Shown here: positions 34,580-45,300 of the stretch, one piece after another | Position numbering within the stretch: the first letter of the stretch is position 1 | Layout: every line of letters begins with the position of its first letter | DNA from: Faecousia sp. | GTDB taxonomy: Bacteria > Bacillota > Clostridia > Oscillospirales > Oscillospiraceae | Assembly (NCBI GenBank): GCA_045587865.1 | Contig: JAZNDD010000180.1 | Coordinates: 6,353 to 70,352 of the forward strand | Direction: 5' to 3' | Length of the DNA stretch: 64,000 nucleotides | The notes under the pieces: generated by a model | The model's input: the letters and a program-made list of their open reading frames with translations, nothing else | What the model was told of the DNA's origin: nothing | The model's database searches: none | Translations under genes and position numbers: made by a program

Positions 34580-34870
34580 ATGTCTGAAAATCTCAACGGT
34601 CTGATTTACAAGGGCCATCCGCTAATGCGAAAAGATAATCTGATTTACTACGGCTCTATGGCCGACAGTCACATTGTTATGCTCCAGATCCTGGAAACAA
34701 AGACTGTAAACGATACTCAAATTGCCACCCGAGTTTCCGTTCAGTTGCAACTGACCGATCCCACCGCTAAAAGCCGAGACCGTGTAGTCAAGAAAGGCGA
34801 AAAAGCAGGTCTTTACACCGCACTGGATTTCGGCTGTGTATGGCTGGAAAGAGCATTGGCTGGTAAATAA
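34580..34870 (+). CDS. Hypothetical protein (96 aa)
   Basis: RBS GGAGG; host-like codon usage; terminator hairpin at 34877-34903. Confidence 0.8.
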   Translation: MSENLNGLIYKGHPLMRKDNLIYYGSMADSHIVMLQILETKTVNDTQIATRVSVQLQLTDPTAKSRDRVVKKGEKAGLYTALDFGCVWLERALAGK

Positions 34871-34909
34871 TTCAGTAAGTGCAGCACATTTTGTGCTGCA
34901 CTTATTTTG

Positions 34910-34938
34910 TTATAAAGAGTCAATTCCGGCACATACTA
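34910..34938 (+). promoter_or_regulatory. Forespore sigma (sigG/sigF)-type promoter of spoVAD
   Basis: TTATA-N17-CATACTA. Confidence 0.6.
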
Positions 34939-34962: not shown

Positions 34963-35976
34963 GTGACAAGTCAAAAAAAGGGCAAGCAGAGTTTCATTCT
35001 TTCTGTGCCTCCTGTGATCACCGCCTGGGCTAGTGTTGCCGGAAAAAAAGAATCGGAAGGGCCCCTGAAAACCTACTTCGACATTGTAGAAAGGGACTCC
35101 TATTTTGGGCAAAAGACCTGGGAACAGGCAGAAAAGCAAATGCAGGCATTGGCCCTGAATAAACTTGCGGAAAAAGCAAATATGTCCACGCGGGATTTTG
35201 GGCTGGTATTTAGCGGTGACCTGCTTAATCAGTGTATCGGCTCTTCCTTTTCCCTTAGAAATATGAACATTCCACATTTGGGACTGTATGGAGCCTGTTC
35301 CACAATGGCAGAAAGTCTTTTAATGGCAGCAATGGCGGTGGGAGGCGGTTTTTTTGATCAGGTTGTTGCAATGACATCTTCCCATTTTGCCTCCTCAGAG
35401 CGGCAATACCGCTTTCCGCTGGGATACGGCGGTCAGCGCACACCGACTGCTCAATGGACTGTCACAGGTTCCGGGGCTGCATTGGTTTCAAACACAGGCA
35501 AAGGTCCAAAAATTACCGCTTGCACCGTTGGAACGGTGACGGATTTGGGGATCAAAGACGCAAATAATATGGGTGCGGCGATGGCACCGGCCGCTCTGTC
35601 TACCATCCGGGCGCATTTCGAAGATCTGAAAGTAAGTGCCGACGACTACGACCTGATCGTAACCGGCGATCTGGGACAATTGGGTAAAGAAGTCCTCCTG
35701 TCACTGGCACAGCGGGAGGGTTTGGGCATCGGCGGCAAGTTAGCAGACTGTGGTACTCTGGTTTTCGATGTGCTGGAACAGGATGTTCATTCCGGCGGTT
35801 CCGGGTGTGGTTGCAGTGCCATCACTCTGTGTGGGTATCTTCTTAACAAACTCAAACTAAGAAAAATGAAAAAAATACTATTCTGCGGTACCGGTGCATT
35901 GCTTTCCCCCACTTCTACTCAGCAAGGTCTGCCCATTCCCGGTGTTTGTCACGCAGTATCTATAACAGGAGGTTAA
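34963..35976 (+). CDS. spoVAD: Stage V sporulation protein AD
   Basis: GKKESEGPL, TWEQAE, GDLLNQC, GLYGACST, HFASSERQYR.P..YG.QR, SGGSGCGCSA; GTG start at 34963 is inferred. Confidence 0.95.
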   Translation: MTSQKKGKQSFILSVPPVITAWASVAGKKESEGPLKTYFDIVERDSYFGQKTWEQAEKQMQALALNKLAEKANMSTRDFGLVFSGDLLNQCIGSSFSLRNMNIPHLGLYGACSTMAESLLMAAMAVGGGFFDQVVAMTSSHFASSERQYRFPLGYGGQRTPTAQWTVTGSGAALVSNTGKGPKITACTVGTVTDLGIKDANNMGAAMAPAALSTIRAHFEDLKVSADDYDLIVTGDLGQLGKEVLLSLAQREGLGIGGKLADCGTLVFDVLEQDVHSGGSGCGCSAITLCGYLLNKLKLRKMKKILFCGTGALLSPTSTQQGLPIPGVCHAVSITGG

Positions 35977-35979
35977 CAA

Positions 35980-36336
35980 ATGGACTATTTGAAAGCCTTT
36001 TTGATTGGAGGAATCCTTTGTCTGATTGGACAAATTCTCATTGACAAAACCAAACTCACTCCTGCAAGAATTTTGGTTAGTTATGTGGTCGCAGGTGTAT
36101 TTTTAGGAGCAATCGGTGTTTATGAAGCCCTTGTAGAATTTGCAGGTGCAGGAGCAACCGTACCTTTGACAGGTTTTGGATATAATCTGGCAAAGGGTGT
36201 TCGGGAAGCCGTGGACGAACAGGGGTTTCTTGGCGTGCTGATTGGCGGCATTAAAGCCACTGCCGGCGGTATCACTGCCGCAATCACTGCCGGACTGGTT
36301 GTCAGTCTTATTTTTAAGGCGAAGGATAAATCCTGA
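35980..36336 (+). CDS. spoVAE: Stage V sporulation protein AE (SpoVAC/AE family)
   Basis: AFLIGG.LC.IGQILID.TKLTPA.ILV, GAGATVPLTGFG. Confidence 0.9.
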   Translation: MDYLKAFLIGGILCLIGQILIDKTKLTPARILVSYVVAGVFLGAIGVYEALVEFAGAGATVPLTGFGYNLAKGVREAVDEQGFLGVLIGGIKATAGGITAAITAGLVVSLIFKAKDKS

Positions 36337-36352
36337 TAATTTGGGCAATCTA
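36324..36352 (+). promoter_or_regulatory. Putative sigG/sigF-type promoter of the N/Q microprotein
   Basis: GGATA-N17-CAATCTA, same geometry as the other sporulation promoters in the window. Confidence 0.45.
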
Positions 36353-36395
36353 ATTTCAGCGGCAAGACCGCAGGAATTACAGGAGGATTGCAAAT

Positions 36396-36539
36396 ATGAA
36401 TAACCAGAACAAAAATCAGAATAACAACCAGAACCAGAATAACAACCAGAACAAGAATCAGAACCAGAACAACAACCAGAATCAGAACCAGAACAACAAC
36501 CAGAATCAGAACCAGAACAACAACCAGAACCGCTACTAA
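36396..36539 (+). CDS. 47-aa Asn/Gln-rich microprotein (absent from the ORF track)
   Basis: RBS AGGAGG; MNNQNKNQNNNQNQNNNQNKNQNQNNNQNQNQNNNQNQNQNNNQNRY*; synonymous AAT/AAC and AAA/AAG variation. Confidence 0.75.
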   Translation: MNNQNKNQNNNQNQNNNQNKNQNQNNNQNQNQNNNQNQNQNNNQNRY

Positions 36540-36545
36540 TTGCAA

Positions 36546-36575
36546 AAGGGCGTGGTGCATTCACACCACGCCCTT
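36546..36575. terminator. Terminator between the N/Q ORF and addA
   Basis: 12-bp stem AAGGGCGTGGTG/CACCACGCCCTT. Confidence 0.8.
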
Positions 36576-36578
36576 CGT

Positions 36579-39500
36579 CTACTTAATTGACACAAAACGA
36601 TTTAACCGGAAGAAATATAGCTGTGCTGATTTTACGGGCTTTTCATAGATCCGCTCCAGCGCATCCGAATACACCCGCACCTGACTGCGGTACTGTTCTG
36701 CCACTTTGTCAATGGAATCCTCAGTAACAAAATTTGTCTTATAATCAATTGCGGTAATCCCATCCGGCTCTATCAGCGCACAGTCAACAACGCCCTGCAA
36801 CAACACTTGCTCGTCTTTCATACCGGGCGCATAATTGGATCCATCGTCCAAAATAGAGAACTTAAATTCCCGGATTACATTCTGACTTGTACGCAGTTTT
36901 TCTCCCAGTTCTGTCCGGAAAAAGGAAAGGATCTGCTGAGGATTGATCAGTTTTGACTGCGCATCTGTGAGCAATCCTTGCGTTTTTAATCGTTGGATCT
37001 CATTGTAAATCCCTGTTTCATCGCAACAGCAGTCGTAACGGATATGCTGCATCAGAATATGGTGGGCATTTCCGTATTCCAGCCCTCTGTTAATTTCCTT
37101 CGCAAAGGACGGCTTTCGGAATGTCACCAAACCATGGTGCTGGGGTGTGTTTTCTGCGGCTTCCTGATCTTTCATTCTGCCCTTCAACTGGGTCGCAGTC
37201 TGTTTAGACGGAGTCTGCGTTGCCAAGATGTGAGCATATACAAAAGAAAGATCTTTTCTGAGCCTTTCAACGGTCTGTGGGGATACGCCCTCCGGTGTAA
37301 ACTCCCCTTCTGATGCCCCGGAAATCGTGTTTTCTGCCGCTACTACCTTTATCAGCCACAACGGCTCACGAAGGGATGCATAAGGCGGATGTCCACCCAA
37401 ATTAAAAAATTCTCCTGCCTCTGTTCGGCTCATTGCCGTTTGAATGACCCATTCTCCCGGACAACCGACTTCGCCGGTCAACAGTTCTTTATCGGAAATC
37501 TGGGATCGCTGTACAATATCCTGCAGATCCTCTTCTAAGTTTTTCACTGCATAAGTCATAATCAGGCGGTCCCTGGCCCGGGTCATTGCCACATACAAAA
37601 CACGCATTTCTTCACTAATGCTGTCCGTAATGGTTTTCGCAGCAATTGCCCGCTTGGCAATAGACGGATAACGAATGCGCTGTCTGTTTTCCACACAATT
37701 AAGACCAAGTCCCAGATCCCGGTCACACAACACCTGCTCGCGAACACTTTCCTGATTGAAATTGCGGGAAAGTCCACAAAGAAACACCACAGGAAATTCA
37801 AGACCCTTTGATTTATGTATACTCATAATGGATACATATCCGGGAAGTTGATTTTCCGTTTCGATTTTCAGGCCTTTTTCGCACATTACATCCAAATGCT
37901 CCAGCAGTTGACCCAGATCCCGACCTCCACCAGCATTATAGTTTGATACATATTGGCAGAAGGTTTGCAAATTCTCTGTGCGCTCCGCGCCGTCCTCCAG
38001 TGCGGAATAAAGCGTATCCAATCCGGTAAGCAGGAATATTTTCTCCAACAGTTCAGGCACATGCTTCATTCCTGCATCCATACGAAGTTGATCCAGAATA
38101 TCACAAAACTTCTTTGCCTTTGGAACACTATGCAAAGCAAAATACAGATTATGATTGCGGTCAGAACTGCGGATTGCCGCCATATCGTCAGCCGTAAAGC
38201 CGAACAAACGACTCATCAACACAGCTGCAAGGGGTATATCTTGCAAGGGATTGGCAATCACCTTCAGGATAGACCACAGCAGTGCCACCTCTTCCGTTTG
38301 CAGCAAGTCTTTACTGCCGCTGGCAATGCAGGCAATCCCCCTTCTTTCCAAGGCATAGCGAAAATAATGACCAACAGAATTATGTGCACGCAATAAAATC
38401 ACAATATCTTCCGGGCGAATCGGGCGCAGGACATTGCCGTTGCGAATCATATGAGTGCCGTCTAACAATTCCTCAATTCGTTGTGCCGCAAAATCTGCCT
38501 CCTCTGGATAGGTATCAGACTGAACCTCAATTCCATACAGTTCCACTGCCGTTTCATTCAGCGAAATATGGGCAACGCCCTCACGGAGCATTTCTTCATC
38601 CCCATACACAAGACCGCCAACCCGCTTAGACATACATTGGGAAAACACATCGTTCACTGCCTGGATCACTTCGTCTCCGGAACGGAAGTTCTTGCTAAGC
38701 AGCACCTTTCTCCCCTGTCCGCTTTTGGCGTCAATCGCAGGCACATACTCATTGTACTTTTTGATGAAGATCCCCGGATCTGCTTCCCGGAACTGATAGA
38801 TCGACTGTTTCACATCGCCAACCATAAAACAATTTTGCCGTTTAGCGGTTAATGCACCGAAAATCGCATCCTGCACTCCATTGGTATCCTGATACTCGTC
38901 AACCATAACTTCCCGGAAGCGGGAACCGATTTCTACTGCCGCAGATGTGGGGGTGGACCTGTTTTTTCCCAAAAGCAGATCCAGCATTTTATGTTCCAGA
39001 TCTCCAAAATCCAATAGACGGCGGCTGCGTTTTAACTTATCGTAAGTCTGATCAAATTTTCTGACAAGGCTCACAAGTCCTCTGGCCGCAACTGCAACAT
39101 TCTGTAAATCCGTCAGCACTTGTTTGCTGTTGTCTGTAAAACTGTCCAGGCGTTTAGCCAGTCCTTTTTTACAGGCGTTTCTTACTGCTTTGATCTGCTC
39201 ATTGAGTTCCGGATCTGTGCATTTTTTATTAAAGGAAAGTGTGCCAAATTTATAATCCTTGCGGGCAACAATTTCCTCCCAGGTGCGGCTTTCACGCAGA
39301 TAGATCAGTTGCGCTAAGTTATCCTCCAGAATGGCCAGCGGTTTTTCCATACCACCGGAAGCAACTGCTCTTTGCACACATTCTTTAAACGCCCGGATAT
39401 TCATATCCAAATATCTGTGCAGATCTTGAATCAAATACGCGCCCCAGACCGTCTGAGAAGCATCCTCAAGCCCGTTTGTATCCACAGACGAAACACACCA

Positions 39501-44987: not shown

Positions 44988-45016
44988 GTATATTTCTTCT
45001 TCAAGCAGACATACTA
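44988..45016 (+). promoter_or_regulatory. sigG/sigF-type promoter of the DUF378 gene
   Basis: GTATA-N17-CATACTA. Confidence 0.65.
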
Positions 45017-45090
45017 GCAATATCCAGTAAACGGTGAACATACACGCATGGATCGTGTATTGTTTATCGGCATTTTATGGAGGTGTAATT

Positions 45091-45300
45091 ATGGACACAT
45101 TGGCACTCATTCTCTCGATCATTGGCTCAATCAACTGGGGTCTTGTGGGTATTTTCCAATTTGATCTGGTGGCGTGGATCTTTGGCGGACAGGACGCAGT
45201 AATCAGCCGAATCATCTATTCAGTGATTGCACTGGCAGGTCTGTGGTGTATCAGTCTGCTGTTTCGCAAAAAGAACGACTGCTGTATCGACAGCGAATAA
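45091..45300 (+). CDS. DUF378-family small membrane protein
   Basis: IIGSINWGLVGIFQFDLVA.IFG...SRIIY; terminator hairpin at 45307-45339. Confidence 0.9.
   Translation: MDTLALILSIIGSINWGLVGIFQFDLVAWIFGGQDAVISRIIYSVIALAGLWCISLLFRKKNDCCIDSE

Follow-up and report, generated by a model that had tools for sequence, protein, structure and literature searches.

What is encoded directly behind spoVAE in this Faecousia genome, and what might its product do in the spore? In the window (the whole 64,000-nucleotide stretch of DNA that we analysed), the forward strand carries an ORF of 47 codons at 36396..36539 encoding MNNQNKNQNNNQNQNNNQNKNQNQNNNQNQNQNNNQNQNQNNNQNRY, with orthologues in syntenic genomes of the genus and at further loci. 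By reading of the window sequence and the ORF list, its ATG lies at 36396 and its TAA at 36537-36539. A preliminary description of the locus had given the microprotein 28 Asn and 14 Gln among 47 residues, with Asn at every odd position from 3 to 45, and these values were confirmed from the sequence together with the ORF coordinates; N+Q amounts to 89%. Even positions are taken by Q, N or K, with R at position 46. The peptide draws on six residue types (M, N, Q, K, R and Y); Glu is absent, and Met1 and Tyr47 are the sole hydrophobic residues. The predicted mass is ~5.71 kDa with Met retained, the nitrogen content is 2.0 N atoms per residue, and the expected tryptic peptides are MNNQNK, NQNNNQNQNNNQNK and NQNQNNNQNQNQNNNQNQNQNNNQNR. 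The codons are AAC 21, AAT 7, CAG 14, AAA 1, AAG 1, CGC 1 and TAC 1, giving AAC 75% and CAG 100% in the gene versus 48% and 77% genome-wide. An in-frame tandem repeat on the same strand (36402..36531; in Tandem Repeats Finder, 5.4 copies of a 24-nt period with 84% matches, next to periods of 12 and 18) reproduced the 24-nt unit described earlier, and the AGGAGG and the 12-bp terminator stem were likewise present as described. AlphaFold (AF2) returned no secondary structure or fold (pLDDT 55, pTM 0.14), in agreement with the earlier view that the peptide has essentially no globular domain.

If selection acts on the protein, then its frame should survive changes in repeat length. Among same-genus genomes reached through spoVAE alone, a hydrophilic ORF of 27-60 aa with a Shine-Dalgarno sequence and an ATG occupies the corresponding site, frame included, in 24 of 24, and lies 50-62 nt downstream of the spoVAE stop; such recurrence goes well beyond chance. 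A pattern scan added more than 100 further species and recovered at least 119 loci, 108 of which are N/Q peptides of 25-60 aa, 97 of them directly after spoVAE. Across 123 unique family ORFs (median length 39 aa), the dominant repeat periods are multiples of 3 in every case; the peptides begin MNNQN[KQ], and 112 of the 123 end in Arg. Within codons 2-6, variation reaches 0.37 at third codon positions but 0.03 at second ones. These results bear out the earlier proposals of a complete stand-alone gene and of selection on the protein, and the search for syntenic spoVAE-[N/Q ORF] loci that the preliminary description had suggested found the ORF in all 24 genus genomes reached. Frameshifting changes of repeat length, which it had named as an argument against a gene, were not what we found. 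Its statement that the repeat is prone to length change holds between species and not within the sister species, where the DNA of the locus is identical in all 8 assemblies.

We weighed these data against the idea that the ORF encodes no functional protein, the alternatives being a spurious frame within microsatellite-like repeat DNA, a regulatory leader peptide or attenuator, and an RNA, structured or abundant, that codes only incidentally. A run of (AAC CAG)n is free of stops in several frames, which makes an open frame weak evidence by itself; the antisense strand likewise has open frames of 146 and 153 aa, gene callers often pick the antisense ORF, and HMMER-based searches came back empty. 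Nevertheless, the frame, the Met-Asn-Asn-Gln-Asn start and the Arg-stop end are kept in more than 120 species despite the length changes, variation is biased to third positions, a consensus Shine-Dalgarno sequence sits at a fixed distance, there is no same-strand downstream gene to attenuate, and Rfam gives no match at the locus, so that we hold a non-coding origin to be extremely improbable. A search of Rfam 15 over 35500-37500 returned only two chance-level matches (E 0.45 and 0.96), neither of them inside the locus. A leader-peptide attenuator was rejected, as the next gene, addA, lies on the opposite strand and ends at 36579; the antisense 146-aa and 153-aa ORFs were rejected because they lack a Shine-Dalgarno sequence, start inside the terminator and overlap spoVAE. 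Its conservation marks the ORF as a genuine coding gene, under protein-level selection and belonging to a lineage-specific family.

Annotation captures this family erratically. In the sister species the microprotein ORF is called in 3 of 8 assemblies, and a spurious antisense ORF of 122 aa is called in the other 5, so the gene is "hidden", as the preliminary description put it, in most of these assemblies and plainly annotated in the rest. Neither Pfam nor NCBIfam contains a family for the window peptide or for the 8 family members tested, low-bias ones included; an hmmscan of the window peptide and 6 relatives returned 0 families at E up to 10. A phmmer-type protein search of 5.8 billion clusters scored 0 of 1479 word-sharing candidates, and a 71-member profile found 0 matches among 1.84 billion representatives; such empty HMMER-type searches say little, because composition-bias correction probably removes sequences of this kind. 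Six family peptides had no exact match in a 15-billion-protein collection. Family ORFs of 43 and 37 aa are nonetheless called as genes in some assemblies, and therefore absence from that collection is no proof that an ORF goes uncalled. A metagenome contig scan found 0 strain-level variants of the window species, and an exact SpoVAE look-up for that species matched no record; strains were compared in the sister species instead.

The family is narrowly distributed. The spoVAE 3' flank could be read in 18 other genomes of the same taxonomic family, and in 17 of them no ORF follows spoVAE; at the level of the order, the microprotein family was found in 3 of 300 genomes. It is therefore not a general requirement of spores. 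A class-level scan with the pattern (NQ)3N hit 1 of 400 genomes, a figure that is weak on absence, since the pattern misses the window gene too. In Paenibacillus, the pattern scan picked up a YfhD-like protein (PF14151), which has only the MNNQNQNQ start in common with the family. On this sampling of genomes, the family is at home in the genus Faecousia (Oscillospiraceae), and a handful of members come from other Clostridia of the gut and rumen.

Within the family, composition is held more tightly than pattern. The 123 ORFs average N 49%, Q 29% and 1.4% hydrophobic residues, with a mean N+Q of 78% and individual members ranging from about 45% to 92%. Lys or Arg recurs every 6-14 residues, and the net charge is about +3. 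The repeat unit varies among relatives between (NQ)n, (NNQ)n, (NNNQ)n, (NSNQ)n and (NENR)n, and the strict Asn-at-odd-positions periodicity of the window peptide is not kept. Low-N/Q members (L003, L022, L025) resemble ordinary hydrophilic peptides, and the closest homologue outside the genus (L166) is an ordinary Q/K/S/A-rich peptide. Such freely drifting repeat patterns and N/Q purity argue against a specific structure and favour a bulk compositional role rather than a defined cross-beta architecture. A DNA-binding basic peptide was rejected, as charge is not conserved and some members carry NENR repeats. A RiPP or bacteriocin precursor was also rejected: there is no leader/core architecture, there are no modification genes, and the neighbours are only SpoVA and AddAB.

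Two spore genes precede the microprotein gene. On the forward strand, spoVAD (34963..35976; 337 aa from GTG 34963; Pfam PF07451, E 1e-140; a 337-aa product is also called in relatives) is followed by spoVAE, of the SpoVAC/SpoVAEB family (35980..36336; Pfam PF03862, E 2e-37). An intrinsic terminator (34877-34910) directly precedes a forespore-type operon promoter read from the sequence, TTATA-N17-CATACTA (34910..34938, + strand), whose CATACTA is a perfect sigmaG-type -10. In C. difficile, spoVA operons and all SASP genes are sigmaG-dependent (PMC3789822). The organism belongs to an uncultured MAG lineage and presumably sporulates; its genome encodes Spo0A, SpoIVA and an alpha/beta SASP (C42:3386-3562, E 1e-27).

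The preliminary description had also proposed a sporulation-type promoter for the microprotein gene itself, and a forespore sigmaF/sigmaG-like motif is indeed kept across the family with fixed spacing. In the window, the -35 element GGATA (36324..36328, + strand) sits within the spoVAE codons AAG GAT AAA, part of the K-D-K-S-stop end of that gene, and the -10 element GGG-CAATCTA (36343..36352, + strand; CAATCTA at 36346-36352) follows after 17 nt. Of 108 loci, 93 have the arrangement GGATA-N17-YAWNCTA together with a GGG ahead of the -10; among 97 scored loci, the GGATA -35 is present in 91 and the 17-nt spacer in 93. In an alignment of 92 sequences, the synonymous third positions G24, T27 and A30 within the -35 are invariant or at least 90% conserved, although genome-wide usage is 55% for AAG and 63% for GAT, and G44, A47 and T51 of the -10 region are invariant. 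In two loci that carry an 11-nt insertion, GAATG stands as a new -35, again at N17. Non-syntenic members in other lineages show GnATA-N17/18-nAnnnTA in 8 of 10 cases (for example, GAATA-N17-CATAATA). A conserved G upstream of the -10 is a sigmaF-type trait in C. difficile (PMC3789822). The alpha/beta SASP promoter of the genome, a weak control, shares a -10 (GGCAATGCTA) and a structured 5' UTR, with no clear -35, and a genome-wide regex scan for forespore promoters was too noisy for enrichment, with a DUF378 gene and a YetF-like gene as anecdotal positives. Taken together, motifs and operon context suggest that the microprotein is expressed in the forespore.

The rest of the transcription unit is compact. 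A stem-loop, GCGG-CAAGA-CCGC (36359..36371, + strand), lies at or near the predicted 5' end of the transcript and folds at -10.8 kcal/mol in the window; a hairpin of at least 4 bp is found in 107 of 118 loci, most commonly starting 5 nt after the -10, with 79% of cells paired across loci and double changes in 17 cells. The Shine-Dalgarno sequence AGGAGG (36381..36386, + strand) is 9 nt ahead of the ATG, and its GGAGG is near-invariant in the 92 aligned sequences. Downstream, a GC-rich hairpin of 12 bp (36546..36575, both strands; arms 36546-36557 and 36564-36575) is common to the microprotein gene and the convergent addA, whose stop is at 36579, and no co-oriented gene lies downstream of the microprotein. 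Its folding energy is -23.2 kcal/mol (z -5.3) on the + strand and -26.6 kcal/mol (z -6.0) on the - strand. A consensus terminator scan called no terminator at this stem, because the + strand is nearly without a U-tract 3' of it; the U-rich tail is on the - strand, where it serves addA. The hairpin is predicted to act as a bidirectional terminator or a 3' stabiliser.

As the gene lies on the same strand immediately after spoVAE at 97 of 108 loci and in all 24 genus genomes, with no terminator between, its product could belong to the SpoVA dipicolinate channel as an accessory subunit or a regulator, binding or plugging the complex. We regard this as highly unlikely. At least 10 members in other lineages stand alone, away from spoVA, and the gene is equipped with a promoter of its own and with signals suited to high expression. 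Length and repeat unit drift freely, unlike those of a specific binding partner, and SpoVA works without the microprotein in the 17 genomes of the taxonomic family in which no ORF follows spoVAE (of 18 read). The synteny is more simply explained by the -35 embedded in the last spoVAE codons.

Collectively, our data are most consistent with a model, in which we place reasonable though far from full confidence, of a lineage-specific, SASP-like forespore protein that serves as an amide-rich reserve or matrix. Transcription would probably come from two sources, the gene's own sigmaF/sigmaG-type promoter, its -35 apparently built out of the last spoVAE codons, and read-through from the spoVAD-spoVAE operon. 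The mRNA would begin with the small GC stem-loop, a putative 5' stabiliser, continue with the consensus Shine-Dalgarno sequence and end in the strong hairpin, a layout that suggests a stable, heavily translated message like those of SASP genes. In the spore core, the product would most likely build up as a SASP-like protein that does not bind DNA, acting as a compact reserve of amide nitrogen and amino acids, as a hydrophilic filler of the dehydrated core, or as both, and would be degraded at germination. Its abundance, core location and storage or matrix function are thus features that the model predicts. In function it would resemble the gamma-type SASP of Bacillus without being related to it.

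Comparison with known small spore proteins is consistent with this SASP-like reading and sets the microprotein apart from each of them. Minor and gamma-type SASPs are small, lineage-restricted and sigmaG-driven, and the gamma-type protein SspE is absent from clostridial genomes (PMC3533761), which, with the lack of Pfam and NCBIfam matches, upholds the earlier remark that this type is not reported from Clostridia. The gamma-type model PF04259 did not match the window peptide or 6 relatives at E up to 10, nor anything in the microprotein's own genome at E up to 1, and a B. subtilis control was positive. Like SspE of the Bacillales, the microprotein is small, predicted to be forespore-made, non-globular, Gln/Asn-rich and internally repetitive, and it is lineage-restricted, highly variable between species and encoded by a monocistronic gene with a strong ribosome-binding site and a terminator; an amino-acid reserve is the one known role of SspE. 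Unlike SspE, it occurs in Clostridia, is half the size or less, shows no detectable sequence relationship and reaches 78-89% N+Q, against a much lower share in SspE. The alpha/beta-type model (PF00269), which describes a DNA-binding, helix-turn-helix-like fold, did not match the window peptide, and 8 family members matched none of the Pfam or NCBIfam models for the minor SASPs (SspH/I/K/L/M/N/O/P, Tlp) and YfhD. The Bacillus minor SASPs (SspH-P, Tlp) and YfhD-like proteins are hydrophilic peptides of 30-70 aa, sigmaG/sigmaF-driven and narrowly, patchily distributed; the family, with its predicted forespore promoter, resembles them, but near-homopolymeric N/Q arising by in-frame repeat expansion is unprecedented among them. 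The microprotein probably represents a type of small spore protein that has not been described before.

Several observations sit less easily with a SASP-like reserve. The promoter was assigned by motif matching alone, and the family is nearly confined to one genus plus scattered lineages. GPR cleaves gamma-type SASPs at a Glu-containing pentapeptide. This motif is not present in the window peptide, as expected from its lack of Glu and of hydrophobic residues other than the two terminal ones, and no GPR gene (PF03418) was found in the 90.6%-complete MAG. Moreover, long runs of Asn and Gln are prone to aggregation and deamidation, which is awkward for a freely soluble reserve.

Aggregation could instead be the point. 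The preliminary description had drawn a parallel with prions, and the peptide might be a functional amyloid, prion-like or gel-forming polymer. Its chains would self-assemble through polar-zipper hydrogen bonds, as cross-beta fibrils or as a hydrogel, in the core or the integuments of the spore, and the resulting physical state would itself be the function. Such a polymer would also be compatible with a storage role. The extreme composition of the window peptide, the high N+Q family-wide and the absence of a competing fold in the AF2 model all fit it. So do two clostridial precedents: GerG of C. difficile carries Asn-rich repeats that form gels spontaneously in vitro (PMC5241399), and N/Q-rich prion-like domains occur in Clostridia, as in C. 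botulinum Rho (PMC4703818). GerG is, like the microprotein, clostridial and spore-associated, with an Asn-rich low-complexity repeat of variable copy number. It differs in being far larger, with flanking functional regions and Met- and Pro-rich GMPNNMSNNMNSNM repeats, and in acting on the incorporation of mother-cell-made Csp proteases, whereas the microprotein has a forespore-type promoter and consists of the repeat alone, which is Gln-rich; furthermore, the GerG repeats are dispensable for GerG function (PMC5241399). With the prion domains of Sup35/Ure2 and C. botulinum Rho, the microprotein has extreme Asn/Gln bias and predicted disorder in common, and at its C-terminal end the window peptide has a Tyr preceded by an N/Q stretch that recalls Sup35. 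Unlike them, it is free-standing (47 codons of repeat only; 25-60 aa in the family), with no attached functional domain for a prion switch to control, is regularly broken by Lys or Arg and does not conserve its register. Typical prion-forming domains are longer than these peptides, whose shortness thus speaks against an amyloid. The same is true of the basic residues every 6-14 positions with the resulting net charge, and of N/Q purity that falls to 45-55% in some members and gives way to a Q/K/S/A-rich sequence in the closest homologue outside the genus. On balance, we consider a dedicated amyloid or gel unlikely.

A bolder and distinctly unlikely variant would join the two ideas: a spore core packed with a near-pure Asn/Gln polymer, forming an amide-hydrogen-bonded reversible gel, glass or amyloid-like matrix that helps to immobilise and protect the dehydrated core and, at germination, is dissolved and consumed as an amide-nitrogen reserve. 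Such a polymer would have evolved by in-frame repeat expansion from a small hydrophilic forespore protein, with its promoter recruited from the last spoVAE codons. If this holds, a bacterium would be making a functional 'polar zipper' as a stand-alone product that lacks any globular part.

Clostridia are thought to be poor in SASP types, with the alpha/beta type, little else and no gamma-type reserve protein. To judge from the locus described here, one or more very species-rich lineages of the gut appear to possess a forespore microprotein of their own, extreme in composition. Small low-complexity genes like this one also form a class that annotation pipelines overlook or supplant with spurious antisense ORFs. 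If the microprotein is abundant in spores, then it would bear on the origin of small genes, through a promoter drawn from upstream terminal codons and in-frame repeat expansion, on the functional use of free-standing N/Q polymers by bacteria, and on nitrogen storage and the organisation of the dehydrated core in the spores of gut anaerobes.

The 47-codon ORF (ATG 36396, TAA 36537-36539) lies on the forward strand between spoVAE, identified by profile match (Pfam SpoVAC_SpoVAEB, E 2e-37; 3' end 36336), and the convergent addA, which ends at 36579 by ORF reading and profile match. Upstream of spoVAE is spoVAD (PF07451, E 1e-140, profile match); spoVAC does not adjoin spoVAD-spoVAE in Faecousia. 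Preceded by AGGAGG at 36381-36386, the ORF encodes MNNQNKNQNNNQNQNNNQNKNQNQNNNQNQNQNNNQNQNQNNNQNRY, using AAC 21 times, CAG 14 times, AAT seven times and AAA, AAG, CGC and TAC once each, and holds a 24-nt unit in 5.4 copies (Tandem Repeats Finder). On its 3' side is a GC-rich 12-bp hairpin (36546-36575; dG -23.2 kcal/mol, z -5.3). The U-tract that follows is weak on the + strand, which is why a simple terminator scan missed the hairpin, and stronger on the - strand; both converging genes probably share this hairpin. The preliminary description of the locus was thus accurate in its SD, start, length, stop, repeat and hairpin. The locus is single-copy: among ORFs 20-90 aa long in the 1.97-Mb MAG, no other combines an SD with an N+Q content of 40% or more; the same scan returned one more ORF, of 25 aa and 44% N+Q, with a TTG start and no SD. 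Elsewhere in the window, between ireB and spoVAD, we observed a 96-aa ORF (MSENLNGLIYKGHPLMRKDN…, 34580-34870) with its own SD, a strong terminator (34877-34910) and no Pfam match; in relatives, a gene of 96 aa is called at the matching position.

As (AAC CAG)n is stop-free in several frames and antisense ORFs of 146 and 153 aa are also present, openness alone is uninformative, and conservation is the test. Relatives were gathered through SpoVAE alone, with no assumption about the small ORF. An SD-ATG ORF of 27-60 aa, 50-62 nt past the spoVAE stop, was found in 24/24 same-genus genomes and at none of the six loci drawn from the order's other families. Scanning 185,579 species genomes for GGAGG-N5-10-ATG AAY AAY CAR AAY MAR AAY yielded at least 119 loci; among the matches listed, 108 specify an N/Q peptide 25-60 aa long, almost all of them in MAGs labelled Faecousia, Oscillospiraceae or Clostridia; 97 of the 108 lie directly 3' of spoVAE. 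The 123 unique family ORFs average N 49%, Q 29%, S, R and K about 5% each, and hydrophobic residues 1.4%; they begin MNNQN[KQ], and 112 end in Arg. Both ends hold one frame while the middle differs in length, and in every ORF the dominant internal repeat has a period divisible by 3. Across codons 2-6 of the unbiased 24-genome set, variation is 0.37 at third versus 0.03 at second positions. Loss of frame through repeat slippage, which the preliminary description had raised as grounds for doubt, was not seen: none of the 11 non-family pattern matches listed is a frameshifted copy, and the termini stay in frame. The repeat had also been thought prone to length change. Lengths do differ between species, but eight independent metagenome assemblies of a sister species share one and the same ORF at the DNA level, so the repeat is not hypervariable over short timescales. 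On these comparisons we conclude that the microprotein gene is real, a stand-alone gene with conserved frame, termini and SD-ATG; that the ORF is non-coding or spurious is very unlikely.

Public calls for the sister species place an antisense 122-aa ORF in lieu of the 43-aa N/Q gene in 5/8 assemblies (L157, L158, L161-L163). It overlaps the spoVAE 3' end, and its 146- and 153-aa counterparts in the window occupy 36103-36564 on the - strand. Considered as a gene, the antisense ORF was rejected as spurious, an annotation artefact of the stop-free repeat.

An alignment of 92 regions upstream of family ORFs revealed four conserved blocks: a -35, a -10, a 5' stem-loop and the SD (GGAGG, 8-10 nt upstream of the ATG). 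The -35 element falls within AAGGATAAATC, the last spoVAE codons (K-D-K-S). In the alignment, AAG, GAT and AAA keep their synonymous third positions without exception or in at least 90% of sequences, against genome-wide usage of 55% for AAG and 63% for GAT, whereas the third position of the following Ser codon varies freely; DNA-level constraint thus lies atop the coding constraint. The -10, GGG-[C/T]A[A/T]N-CTA, stands exactly 17 nt past the -35 in 93 of the 97 scored loci among the matches listed. In B. subtilis, the sigmaG consensus is GHATR-N17/18-CATnHTA and the sigmaF consensus GYATR-N15-GGnnAnnnTA; by these B. subtilis standards the pair reads as sigmaG-type and, with the GG counted, also as sigmaF-type. 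As sigmaF and sigmaG promoters are very similar in C. difficile, where the sigmaF type is set apart by a conserved G 5' of the -10 (PMC3789822), we infer a forespore-type promoter without choosing the sigma factor.

Three controls support promoter function. In two Faecousia-type loci, L043 (5407-5504) and L110 (5708-5805), an 11-nt insertion right 3' of the spoVAE stop destroys the GGATA register, and a new -35-like GAATG stands exactly 17 nt upstream of the -10, a natural spacing experiment. Family members of other lineages, away from spoVA, carry GnATA-N17/18-nAnnnTA in 8/10 cases among the matches listed, such as GAATA-N17-CATAATA (L152, L153) and GTATA-N18-CATAATA (L100). Finally, the window's spoVAD promoter is TTATA-N17-CATACTA, immediately 3' of a terminator. 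We also observed a 69-aa DUF378 membrane-protein gene (ATG 45091, within 44988-45300; PF04070, E 4e-26) whose upstream promoter, GTATA-N17-CATACTA (44988-45016), is a textbook example of the forespore type; this small gene, too, is probably expressed in the forespore.

The 5' stem-loop (GCGG-loop-CCGC, 36359-36371) begins about 5 nt past the -10, as a GC stem-loop does in 107/118 loci among the matches listed. Its covariation is modest but real, with 79% of cells paired and 17 double-change cells, a level reached by 2/500 shuffles; the stem-loop, lying at the predicted +1, may stabilise the transcript's 5' end. With no terminator between spoVAE and the ORF, read-through from the spoVA operon, which is sigmaG-dependent in C. 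difficile (PMC3789822), is also likely. Since its genome encodes Spo0A, SpoIVA and one alpha/beta SASP (small acid-soluble spore protein), the host looks like an endospore former. The germination protease GPR (PF03418), SpoVAC and a second SpoVAC-type paralogue were not found in the 90.6%-complete MAG, while relatives hold two SpoVAC/AEb-type genes; the missing GPR and second SpoVAC-type gene may reflect this incompleteness or real loss.

A slightly relaxed N-terminal pattern matched 92/201 Faecousia species genomes (reversed control, 0), a lower bound because it recovers 17/24 proven carriers, and only 3/300 genomes that span 149 further genera within the order. Another 20 genomes were checked, 18 from the same family and two from a different one within the order; 19 of these 20 have spoVAE, one on a contig that ends there with its flank unreadable. 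The promoter-hairpin-SD arrangement appeared in only one of the 20, the closest (L166, contig G264:C87; SpoVAE 77% identical). Its peptide, cut by the contig end, is ordinary hydrophilic and Q/K/S/A-rich (MDKQNKKTNQQQDSQKAGQQARLKAEAASANSQ… / MDKQNKKTNQQQDSQKAGQQARLKAEAASANSQKDTQSKSHAKGQL…), a likely ancestral form of the N/Q microprotein. Together with low-N/Q members within Faecousia (L003, L022, L025), this makes the N/Q-only state look derived. In-frame repeat expansion would have produced it, with units differing species by species (NQ, NNQ, NNNQ, NSNQ, NENR). The pattern scan also matched two Bacilli genes beginning MNNQNQN…, in Paenibacillus taihuensis (L078) and Peribacillus psychrosaccharolyticus (L074). 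One product is a small sporulation protein of the YfhD-like kind (PF14151, E 1.6e-8), and the second, of 111 aa, looks CotF-like; the common N-terminus is probably coincidental.

No Pfam or NCBIfam model matched the window peptide or its low-bias relatives, including SASP_gamma, alpha/beta SASP, minor SASPs and YfhD; the genome has no PF04259 gene, and our literature search turned up no account of peptides like these. In function, gamma-type SASP comes closest; Galperin et al. report SspE missing from all clostridial genomes and minor SASPs narrowly distributed (PMC3533761). The nearest clostridial precedent for Asn-rich low-complexity spore sequence is GerG, whose repeats form a gel in vitro, yet are dispensable (PMC5241399).

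Direct calculation gives the peptide a mass of about 5.7 kDa, a net charge near +3 and 94 nitrogen atoms in 47 residues (2.0 per residue). AlphaFold2 (71-sequence alignment) gave pLDDT 55, pTM 0.14 and no secondary structure, predicting that a globular fold is absent. AAC and CAG are favoured relative to the genome, consistent with high expression and equally with repeat homogenisation. Across the family, repeat register, length and N/Q purity drift freely, which disfavours a sequence-specific structure or partner. This drift makes a SpoVA accessory improbable and counts against the amyloid of the preliminary description, which as a strict architecture is unlikely, if somewhat less so; generic N/Q self-association is still physically plausible. 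We favour, with moderate confidence, a forespore-expressed, SASP-like microprotein acting by bulk composition, which would supply an amide-rich reserve and/or a hydrophilic matrix of the spore core. Its reading as a forespore microprotein is well supported, with forespore expression predicted from promoter motifs, and storage or matrix function is plausible; the microprotein would then be a variant within the SASP kind.
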